A stretch of DNA of 63,187 nt, the filler included, from Collodictyon triciliatum (Eukaryota): the NCBI GenBank assembly GCA_043381765.1. It is 6 parts of 6 records of this genome, joined end to end, with 100 filler letters (N's around TTAATTAATTAA, not from the genome) between each part and the next. Parts side by side here need not be neighbours in the genome. Positions count along the whole stretch, not along the records: positions 21,447 to 32,063 come from JBHJMP010002619.1; 5 more parts are not named here. One strand, given 5' to 3'. How positions within the stretch are numbered: position 1 is the stretch's first letter; the number at the start of each line of letters is the position of its first letter. Shown in pieces: positions 28,405-30,946 of the stretch. The notes beneath the pieces are model-generated. The model was given only the letters and a program-made list of their open reading frames with translations. It did not search any database and was not told where the DNA came from. A program made the translations under genes and the position numbers.

Positions 28405-28559
28405 AATAATACATAAATAACGAGCAAATAATGAATAATGAATATATTGATGTCATCTGTTTTGTATTTTTTTTTACCAACCCTGGTAGAATTCCATGAT
28501 TTAATTGGCATAGGTATTGCTTCACGTCTCTATAATGCAACTTAATATATTTTACATAA

Positions 28560-28740
28560 TCGAAAGGCTGGATAAATTATTTTTTTATAAAAGTTCTTTG
28601 ATAAGAGCACTTTTTTTAACTAGAAAGAGTATACCATCTTTCGATTGGTAAACATGGTGTGCTAGTATCCAAGGTCTCACCACTTGTCTCACAAAGATCG
28701 TGTAGTGGTGAAGGCTGCCAGGAAAGACCCAACAGCCTAT
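28560..28740 (-). ncRNA. Candidate Fanzor omega-RNA scaffold
   Basis: Minus-strand consecutive hairpins AGGCTGTTGGG/CCTGGCAGCCT, TCACCACT/AGTGGTGA, TACCAATC-GAAA-GATGGTA inside ACTAG/CTAGT, and AAAAGT..TCTT/AAGA..ACTTTT, plus the long-range pair TTGGATA/TATCCAG. Located directly 3' of RuvC-III. Confidence 0.7.
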
Positions 28741-30088
28741 TTTTTAAAGAGAAAGGTGTATGCATATTTTGAAGAATTGGATGAAGTTTGTTGAGTATAT
28801 TTTTGGCGCTGTTAAAGTCCCTTGTCAAGAATACAGTTTGTTTGCTTTCTGAGCGATTTCATTCTTTACATATGAGACATCTATACAACTTTTTTTGTAT
28901 TTCCTTTCGGTGTCATATATTCCAGTTCTTTTTCGCAGTTACAACACATATTGGAGGTTATAAATTCATCTACACTAACTGTTTCAAAACGTTTGGATAG
29001 TATTTTTCGTAATCCTCTTTCGATTGTTGGTGTAAAATGTTTCATCTGACATTTTCTGCTGCAATCTCCACACGCCACCAGTATAACAGCCTTGCCAAAT
29101 GCCTTTTCGAATCGGACCATAAACAATTGCTAACTTCTTTTTGTGTTAACATATTATCTTCATCTCATCTTTCGAAAAGCTAGTTAATCATAAAATCTGG
29201 AAAGTTATACATGGTATCTTGATTTCATAGATATACATATTTTCGAAATTTTTCATAACCAACCGTGCATGAATTACGTTTCAGTTCTGTCTATAAATCG
29301 ATTAAAGACACTCTTGATGTCTCAAAAAGCTGATTCTTTTCAAAAGTCCTGTGACCCAAAGAAACAGCACTTTGTAAATCTGTTACTGTGCATATCCCTG
29401 AAGCATTGTACTTTTTTTTTTCTCGCGCAAGAGTATTTTGTGATTTTCAAGAGATTTGCTATCATGTCTTCATTGGTGAGCCGGGTAACGTAATTTCTTA
29501 CCTGTCTCATCCACCATGTAAACCAAATTAAACTTGCCTGCGTCCACCTCAACTATTTTTTTTTTCGCTAATAAAGATAACTGCTCTTCGGAACGTTCAT
29601 CTATATAAACATATTCTTGGTTTTTTTTTTGATTATATTTGGATTTTGAATTTGAAATCCCTTTCTTTTGAAACAATTATAACACCGCCAAGCCGTCTGT
29701 TTGTATCATGTATTTAAATTGCAGTCTCTTTGATGAAAGACCCTCTTCTTAATTTCAAAGAACTTATCACATAGGGTCTCATTGCATCCTGATATATTCT
29801 TCAGTAATAATGTTTTTCCAGATAATACTAATAGATCTATCAAACATGCAGTATCTAGAGTAATATGACATAGTACATAATTAGTTCTTTTGGAGATTGG
29901 TTGAAACAGTTTGGCTCCGATGTCCTCAAAAATGTGATTCATGTAAACCAAACATGGAATGTACTTATTTGGACTGACTTTGACATCATATTCGATAGCT
30001 TTTACAATATCGCTGGGAATGATACGATGCAAGTGCGTTGTAGTCCATTCTTTTTATTGTTCCGGTATTTCGAGTTTCTTGAAGATCG

Positions 30089-30162
<74 letters not shown>

Positions 30163-30703
30163 CGCAACTCTGTCTTTTGAATAGCTATCCGTCATATTCT
30201 CATCTTTAGGAACTATTTGATTTATAAAACGCAGTAACCTCTTTACAAAATGCTCCTTAATGTTATTATGATAAGCTGTTAGCATTAGCTTCGCCAAGTA
30301 CGGTAGTACATGAGACAGTCTAACCAAGGAAAGCGTTCTTCTTGGGACAAAAGGAATCGAAAAACACTGAGATAAAAAAGTCATCATGTCGATACTCATT
30401 TCTGGATGTTTTTAATCTTGCGGGTTCTATCATATGAAACTGTTTCGACTGTCTTTAAAGCCTACAAAAAAAGAAAAAAAAAAACATTTCATCGATTGTT
30501 GGGAGTTGTTGTGATTTCAATATATAACATCTCGCAAACAGATAAGTGTCCGTAACCAAATTATGACACAATAAAACTGTATCGTTGATTTTGTCATAGT
30601 CATCAACATTCTTTACAATCGACTTTAGAGATGCTTTCACATTTCGATTATGTGGTTTTACAGACTTCGGATTCTCAGACTCCAGGCGTTTTCTTTTCTT
30701 CAT
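28616..30703 (-). pseudogene. Fanzor1 (eukaryotic TnpB-family RuvC nuclease), intronless, disrupted by frameshifts and stops
   Basis: N-terminal VKASLKSIV...INDTVLLCHNLVTDTYLFARCYIL, MLTAYHNNIKEHFVKRLLRFIN and LFQPISKRTNYVLCHITLDT. RuvC-I VEVDAGKFNLVYM (D at 29542-29544), VILVACGDCS, RuvC-II VDEFITSNM (E at 28965-28967), zinc finger CCNC...CLIC, RuvC-III TRDFNSAKNI (D at 28817-28819). Confidence 0.9.
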
Positions 30704-30786
30704 CTGAATTTTTTTTTTTTTTTACTTTTTCTTTTAGAGAACTACTGAGTTTTCAATCTTAATAAAACTTTAGTCAATCAGTCAAT

Positions 30787-30882
<96 letters not shown>

Positions 30883-30946
30883 CAACCACATAAAATCAAT
30901 TTATGTAAAATAAAGCATCTACCAAGACTCTCAAAATATGCGCATT

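Follow-up and report, generated by a model that had tools for sequence, protein, structure and literature searches.

The question raised by this locus of Collodictyon triciliatum is what a gene for an RNA-guided nuclease of the Fanzor1 type, still recognisable and interrupted many times over, represents in the genome: an enzyme blurred by sequencing errors, a remnant of a giant virus or the relic of a transposable element. The locus lies on the minus strand at 28616-30703 of the window, i.e. the whole 63-kb stretch of DNA that was analysed, which is a chain of separate scaffolds joined by the spacer N44-TTAATTAATTAA-N44. The original prediction, made from the sequence alone, had proposed a decayed Fanzor1 element with its catalytic motifs retained at 28548-30912, a span that proved too wide, since the coding sequence (CDS) occupies 28616-30703. 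The reading put forward here, with a probability of roughly nine in ten, is that this stretch is a dead copy of a short intronless element of ~2.1 kb, which carries the Fanzor1 gene only and belongs to a multi-copy repeat family of the host.

The gene runs from an ATG at 30703-30701 to a frame-0 TAA at 28618-28616, and ~9 frameshifts and 10 in-frame stops divide it into pieces that lie in three frames of the minus strand and are colinear with nearly the full length of intact proteins of ~630 amino acids (aa). As had been proposed, these open reading frame (ORF) fragments thus form one protein. Three-frame translation gives them at 30455-30721 (VKASLKSI), 29986-30411 (AYHNNIKEHF, then a poly-Lys run), 29706-30053, 29470-29676 (VEVDAGKFN), 28881-29129 (VDEFITSNMCCNCE) and, after 'RCLICKE*', 28616-28858 (TRDFNSAKNI). 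In a frameshift-aware alignment, residues 2-616 of the intact protein P0012 (634 aa) pair with window positions 30697-28709, 267/600 being identical, and homologues searched back by tblastn align in order from ~30655 to ~28667, 24 of them besides P0012 in a colinear manner. Searched by HMMER against 1.84 billion proteins, the 82-aa fragment alone found 209 matches at E<=1e-3, including 27 at E<=1e-10 (best 3.7e-18); among 150 of these 209 matches listed, 45 are at least 550 aa long. The gene was also expected to be intronless in a genome of intron-bearing genes, and it is: the neighbouring kinase gene has introns, and an extra segment of ~30 residues at ~29427-29293 is coding in the sister-lineage protein P0004 too, so that it represents lineage-specific coding sequence and not an intron. 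Introns were likewise rejected as the cause of the breaks, no GT..AG pair being seen at the break points read and the sister ORFs being uninterrupted there.

The assignment to Fanzor1 is borne out by the fragments, by P0012 and by a profile of the family alike. Three of the fragments match solved Fanzor1 chains of the PDB in the expected order, namely the 82-aa fragment covering RuvC-II and the zinc finger (PpFz1 from Parasitella, E 6.3e-6), the 141-aa fragment with AYHNNIKEHF (GtFz1 from Guillardia, E 8.8e-4; the Parasitella chain, 0.008) and, weakly, the 115-aa fragment (GtFz1, E 0.8; SpuFz1, E 1.4), the last two being pieces of the REC region, and the 68-aa and 80-aa fragments found no Fanzor match in the same database. 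Searched in the same way, P0012 matches SpuFz1 (E 9.2e-37, residues 14-607), PpFz1 (7.2e-34) and GtFz1 (7e-16) and nothing else at E<=1e-3. Profile A1 was made of 23 full-length homologues, which the window copy joins through its 267/600 identity to P0012; it matches PpFz1 (2.8e-82), SpuFz1 (8.8e-80) and GtFz1 (5.4e-58). LaTranC comes next with 0.0017, and none of the PDB chains at E<=1 bears the name Fanzor2 or TnpB. The Pfam domain Cas12f1-like_TNB is found in 4/8 homologues, above its curated cut-off only in P0025. Regarding the position within Fanzor1, in a FastTree tree of 69 rows the window copy has a branch to itself (length 1.02) within a 39-row polytomy of viral and unlabelled sequences; the rows nearest to it by tree path are viral, and 6/23 viral rows, flagged as long branches, may be a neighbouring ORF as the longest plus-strand ORF per locus was used. 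This polytomy lends no support to the earlier suggestion of a new Fanzor lineage.

The residues by which Fanzors are told apart are for the most part still legible. A basic N-terminus (MKKRKR..., 30640-30703, minus strand) aligns with that of P0012 and would resemble a nuclear localisation signal, as reported at the N-terminus of Fanzors (PMC10530073). Yoon et al. (PMC10711439) name as Fanzor features the DPG motif and an alternative glutamate of RuvC-II and, in the WED domain of Fanzor1, a TDG motif; the TDG is retained on the minus strand at 29692-29700 (T318, D319 and G320 of P0012). At RuvC-I (29536-29544, minus strand), the catalytic Asp D372 (29544) and G374 are kept, and P373 of the DPG, invariant in the 23/23 relatives of profile A1, is replaced by Ala, giving 'DAG'. 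At the canonical TnpB site of the RuvC-II Glu stands a Gly (29067-29069, minus strand), within a 'CGDCS' derived from GDWS (G496 kept, W498 changed to Cys), and the alternative, rearranged Glu follows on the same strand in 'VDEFITS' at 28965-28967 (E530 of P0012), its context reading 'VDEFITSNMCC'. Jiang et al. (PMC10530073) place the rearranged glutamate ~45 residues from the canonical site, and Bao and Jurka (PMC3627910) give a D-X-[TS][TS]-X-X-C4-X-RD constellation as well as a conserved Gly and Glu of Fanzor1, reported as G500 and E536. The RuvC-III Asp is present in 'TRDFNSAKNI' (28817-28819, minus strand), with D581 (28819), N583 and N587 kept. The three residues proposed at the outset as the catalytic triad, i.e. 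D of VDAG, E of DEFITS and D of RDFNSAKNI, do align with D372, E530 and D581 of P0012, and these fall in the motifs DPN, DEY and NRD of SpuFz1 when the two proteins are aligned. They can be read as D383, E541 and D606 of SpuFz1, a numbering offset matched only by eye on a PDB chain that is an MBP fusion; together with N385 these residues form the metal-binding site of SpuFz1 (Saito et al., PMC10432273). On this alignment, the D-E-D of the window copy is the predicted rearranged triad of Fanzor type. The predicted CxxC...CxxC finger stood only in part: 'CLIC' is literally a CxxC, but of the C4 zinc finger (28859-28946, minus strand) 3/4 Cys columns are kept (28946, 28937 and 28870), the fourth and conserved one (C567) being a TGA stop at 28861-28859, with a frameshift at ~28886. 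The finger is therefore lost in the window copy, and since the sister ORF P0007 keeps this Cys in a single frame, the ancestral gene had it.

The copy is far from alone. Short ORFs on tiny contigs are much closer to it than any full-length protein, namely P0169 (137 aa, 85-86% identical), P0030 (75-80%), P0007 (69% in the true frame) and P0004 (54-64%). The records of P0007 and P0030, on contigs of 582 and 518 bp, open in a wrong frame before switching to the true one, which are gene-prediction artefacts; because both begin in the wrong frame, they derive from broken copies too. At the nucleotide level, Logan contigs of four public runs were aligned to 28400-30950. Over 28658-30721, run X1 gave 290 contigs and run X3 302 (organisms A and B of one study), with a likeness of 85 to more than 99%; the classes of at least 99%, 95-99%, 90-95% and below 90% hold 28, 65, 113 and 84 contigs for X1 and 27, 51, 131 and 93 for X3. 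Two freshwater metagenomes contributed 20 and 89 contigs. Summed contig depth, which is not a copy number, drops from 187/138 over 28658-28743 to 8/38 over 28572-28657. A 1856-nt contig of X3 (record 17) spans 28402-28653, the unique flank, differing from the window by 2 letters (~99%), and ends there, and a contig of X4 diverges from the window at 28619. The depth drop and the contig ends put the approximate 3' boundary of the repeat at 28619-28653, at the ORF stop. In these comparisons, 30697-30950 was masked as simple repeats, and the parts with no cover, 30722-30950 and a large share of 28400-28657, were uninformative, being masked or thinly represented. We take these data to mean that the same species, or one very close to it, harbours dozens, if not more, of diverged copies of one repeat family, the 3' end of which coincides with the stop codon. 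Sister copies had been foreseen elsewhere in the genome and do exist, but protein searches found no intact full-length one: no long sister ORF came up in word-indexed searches with the 82-aa and 115-aa fragments (E<=1e-3), and a near-match search returned P0169 only, which is weak evidence. No second Fanzor1 copy was found in the window. A TA lies just outside the inferred 3' end (28617-28619, within TTTTTTTAA), as a Tc1/mariner duplication would look, and may be a matter of chance in AT-rich DNA. On the other side, an (AAT) microsatellite of ~30 units (30790-30880) and a T15 run (30709-30723) lie directly upstream of the Fanzor1 start and conceal the 5' boundary.

A bolder version of the same picture would unite the window copy and its fragmentary sisters (P0169, P0007, P0030 and P0004) in a Fanzor1 sublineage not sampled before, whose nearest intact protein, among ~15 billion, is ~45% identical. 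This sublineage would have multiplied in a freshwater eukaryote to dozens or hundreds of copies, some of them still intact, the element ending at its stop codon and the whole guide-RNA scaffold lying inside the CDS. If true, such a scaffold inside the CDS would be a more TnpB-like layout than that of SpuFz1. This whole set of claims is regarded as unlikely.

A rival explanation is prompted by the distribution of intact relatives, i.e. that the locus is an endogenous viral element left by an integrated giant-virus genome and not a copy of a host transposon. Scanning IMG/VR with profile A1 gave 467 candidate stretches, 461 of which encode relatives, and 80 loci were kept, many on giant-virus contigs of metagenome-assembled genomes (MAGs) up to 289 kb long. 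The nearest intact relatives, ~45% identical to the window copy, sit on such contigs, P0012 being 88% identical to the protein of one of them, the locus L001. On a 254-kb giant-virus MAG contig, L001 is a complete Tc1/mariner-like element of 3.3 kb (4637-7952), with perfect 32-nt terminal inverted repeats (TIRs) at 4637-4668 and 7921-7952 and a TA next to each repeat core, on both flanks. Between the TIRs lie an intact Fanzor1 gene (6001-7905, 634 aa), whose stop precedes the right TIR by 16 nt, and a divergent 346-aa ORF with DDE_3 (E 1.3e-13) and HTH_28 domains, of which a homologue occurs in the fetched flank of 24/80 loci. Such a Tc1/mariner-type arrangement was described by Bao and Jurka (PMC3627910). 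The wealth of viral relatives and the viral rows nearest in the tree speak for a viral origin of the locus. Against it, an intron-containing kinase gene ends ~210 nt from the Fanzor1 ORF stop, on the opposite strand, and a leucine-rich repeat (LRR) gene lies on the same scaffold, which showed no further viral gene; the repeat breaks off where the ORF ends; the window fragments are only 42-57% identical to the best viral copies; and no supported clade of the tree unites viruses with the window copy. Because the intron-bearing kinase gene adjoins it and the LRR ORF shares its scaffold, the insertion is one between or beside cellular genes and not inside a viral gene block. A viral remnant is accordingly considered quite improbable, and the copy of a host repeat family remains the preferred reading.

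More improbable still is that the gene is intact in the organism and that its breaks are errors of assembly or sequencing. The assembly is admittedly fragmentary, with scaffolds of ~10.6 kb ending in simple repeats and internal N gaps, and some of the frameshifts do occur where such errors would be expected. Frameshifts are needed at ~30463, 30407, 30378, 30326, 30180 (or within a 67-T tract), 29708, 29427, 29236 and 28886; since sequence conservation is weak around those at 30463 and 30407, the count is better given as at least 7, about 9. Breaks at homopolymers had been invoked to explain them, which holds for ~4 of ~9, at or beside A11 (30474-30484), T6 (~30378), T67 and T10 (29412-29421), sister contigs varying in length at 29411, but most are not in long runs: those at 30326, 29708 and 29236 are in no homopolymer and that at 28886 is beside an A5 run. 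The long T tract expected at about 30089-30156 and its frame change are real, its exact span being 30090-30156 with 67 T, which read as poly-Lys on the sense (minus) strand. This expansion is specific to the window copy, P0169 having there ~2 residues in a single frame and P0012 3 residues between the flanking high-scoring segment pairs. The frameshifts announced near 29555 and 29625, in contrast, do not exist, none occurring at the T10 runs 29556-29565 and 29621-29630 and the TDG (29700) and RuvC-I Asp (29544) being in one frame.

The in-frame stops are the harder lesions to attribute to errors, as all 10 are base substitutions outside long homopolymers and comprise the three stop codons (30056 TAA, 29679 TAA, 29472 TGA, 29293 TAG, 29207 TAA, 29186 TAA, 29162 TGA, 29156 TAA, 29132 TAG and 28861 TGA). 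They stand opposite the homologue residues Y, L, R, E, Q, W, Q, E and C. A variant genetic code was ruled out, TAA, TAG and TGA all being in frame opposite varied residues and the frameshifts persisting. In sister ORFs, the stop at 30056 corresponds to Tyr (P0169) and that at 28861 to Cys (P0007), and P0004 has sense residues at 29472, 29293, 29207, 29186, 29162, 29156 and 29132, with R, E, W, Q and E at five of these stop positions; the stop at 29679 is outside all sister alignments. Nor does the frame shift in the sister ORFs at 30378, 30326 and the T67 tract (P0169) or at 28886 (P0007), and some sister contigs lack the window indels at 28890, 29231, 29715 and 30327. Besides, 6/22 invariant columns of profile A1 are replaced, namely P259, W294, P373 (DPG to DAG), R396 (stop), D477 and C567 (stop), the other 16/22 being kept, as are 24/30 of the nearly invariant ones. 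With ~9 frameshifts, 10 stops, a 67-nt expansion and 6/22 invariant residues replaced, the window copy cannot make the protein. It is a dead pseudogene and not a working Fanzor1, its lesions belonging to the copy itself or to its subfamily, and the prediction of a decayed gene in which the D-E-D survives was right.

An identity as Fanzor2 or prokaryotic TnpB, or an origin from bacterial contamination, is practically dismissed: the sole Pfam match is the generic Cas12f1-like_TNB / OrfB zinc ribbon common to all these families, whereas the profile strongly matches three Fanzor1 chains only (all others at 0.0017 or weaker), the TDG motif and a long REC region are colinear with SpuFz1 and the flanks are eukaryotic intron-bearing genes.

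Several points nevertheless weigh against the reading as a dead member of a host Fanzor1 family. The homopolymer-linked shifts (~30463, 30378, T67 and 29427) could in principle be assembly errors, and Pfam gave for the window's eight fragments nothing but Cas12f1-like_TNB at E 0.18. The Logan contigs come from other samples and not from the reads behind the assembly, and at 3/4 of the indel sites that vary among sister contigs, the window is matched by most of the summed X1 and X3 depth, so that some lesions may be common to many copies or to a subfamily. TIRs, a target site duplication (TSD) and the 5' end were not definable, a search for an inverted repeat pairing with the 3' end finding nothing. 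No omega-RNA was found, Rfam giving 0 matches over the whole window, and the fold of 28600-28860 is no better than that of shuffled sequences (z -1.41; 16/200 shuffles as good); the omega-RNA anticipated from the 3' end thus finds no support for the window copy. As to mobility, the Tc1/mariner link rests on relatives only ~45% identical.

Among known systems, the closest parallel is Spu-1 of Spizellomyces punctatus, the element encoding SpuFz1 (PDB 8GKH, 9CEU-9CEZ), which according to PMC10432273 is likewise ~2.1 kb long, with a single intronless ORF and no internal transposase. Like the window family, Spu-1 is multi-copy, with full and partial copies (42 loci with full-length, 19, or partial genes; PMC10432273), and the two share the domain order and the motifs DPx, DE(F/Y)xTS and RD. 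Spu-1 differs from the window copy by its 30-nt inverted repeats and its omega-RNA, neither of which was found in the dead copy; the window element appears to end at the stop codon, whereas Spu-1 has ~80 nt between stop and 3' inverted repeat (PMC10432273). The link between window copy and SpuFz1 is one by profile, the closest intact homologue, P0012, standing at E 9e-37. PpFz1 (9CF0) and GtFz1 (9CER) are matched directly by fragments, but are distant and matched over short stretches only. L001, the nearest intact relative at ~45% protein identity, has the TIRs, TA flanks and DDE_3 transposase that were not found for the window copy, and resides in a virus whereas the latter lies between host genes. 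TnpB is a protein of ~400 aa; the window family differs from it by a much longer protein, by the REC extensions of Fanzor1 and by the TDG motif, and no TnpA is present. Fanzor2 and TnpB (IS607 / IS200-IS605) share with it the RuvC and C4 zinc ribbon core, D...[TS][TS]xxC4...RD (PMC3627910).

A mechanism can be sketched from the literature and from these parallels. The host is an AT-rich eukaryote with short introns of spliceosomal type, which is as far as the data bear out the 'protist' of the original prediction. Judging from the literature, the intact relatives would be omega-RNA-guided double-strand DNA endonucleases, with a triad presumably made of the Asp of DPG, the alternative Glu beside the TS-x-x-C zinc finger and the Asp of RD, and their guide RNA would be transcribed across the 3' end of the element into the flank. 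Intact Fanzor1 was reported to bind an omega-RNA from the right end and to cut double-stranded DNA next to a target-adjacent motif (PMC10432273; PMC10530073), and TIR and TSD were described as part of the RNA scaffold of Fanzor1 (PMC10711439). Because the element ends at the stop codon, the predicted RNA scaffold would coincide in part with the end of the ORF. The family may consist of a non-autonomous element with the Fanzor gene only, like Spu-1, moved in trans and perhaps by a Tc1/mariner transposase; a non-autonomous derivative of this kind is the most likely by inference, since an intact relative sits in a Tc1/mariner-like element with a DDE_3 transposase. No transposase was found on the 10.6-kb scaffold, within which the original statement to that effect holds; the L001 transposase has no homologue in the window at E<=10, the L001 TIR has no match longer than 9 nt on the scaffold, and the ORFs upstream of the element carry no Pfam domain.

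The appeal of Fanzor1 nucleases is twofold: they are compact genome editors from eukaryotes, and they illustrate how genes pass between giant viruses and the hosts of these. Fanzor1 has been reported from fungi, protists including amoebozoa, arthropods, plants and giant viruses (PMC10432273; PMC10530073; PMC3627910), the family is counted in hundreds to thousands and decayed and partial copies have been described before. The window copy is thus an ordinary relic of a transposon-borne family already known in many eukaryotes and giant viruses, and nothing in the literature consulted makes a dead Fanzor1 copy remarkable; supplementary tables, which were outside this scope, may list the host or the lineage. 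The locus adds one host lineage in which a Fanzor1 family has been amplified, its nearest intact relatives being carried by viruses; this fits the long-standing idea of viruses spreading such elements (PMC3627910). The dead copy yields no usable enzyme, and its value is that of a probe for intact copies, element ends and guide RNA in the full genome.

As for the surroundings, the spacers of the window, N44-TTAATTAATTAA-N44 with stops in all six frames, lie at 10626-10725, 21347-21446, 32064-32163, 42778-42877 and 53480-53579. The pieces between them are near-equal and descending (10,621, 10,617, 10,614 and 10,602 bases), each with a simple-sequence repeat at its end, and can be read as scaffolds ordered by size and then chained; since separate scaffolds are chained, gene order across the joins is meaningless. 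The sole context of the Fanzor1 copy is therefore its own scaffold (21447-32063, ~10.6 kb), with an internal gap at 27715-27847. On it, the last exons of the host protein-kinase gene (26786-28404, plus strand), which converges on the element, are separated by short GT..AG introns and match Pfam PK_Tyr_Ser-Thr and Pkinase on two exons; its stop codon is probably the TAA at 28402-28404, following our own reading of the splice. The element has a GC (guanine + cytosine) content of 0.333, the kinase region one of 0.357. Further away on the same scaffold, an LRR-protein ORF of 753 codons (21450-23708, minus strand) matches Pfam LRR_8 (E 2.9e-30). Its core (~22000-23700) has 56-70% GC, against ~33% GC for the genome, and contains a short peptide repeated in tandem (ELHPDS...) as well as long frames that are open on both strands; a second GC-rich patch (0.57-0.63) occurs at 46001-48000, on another scaffold of the chain.

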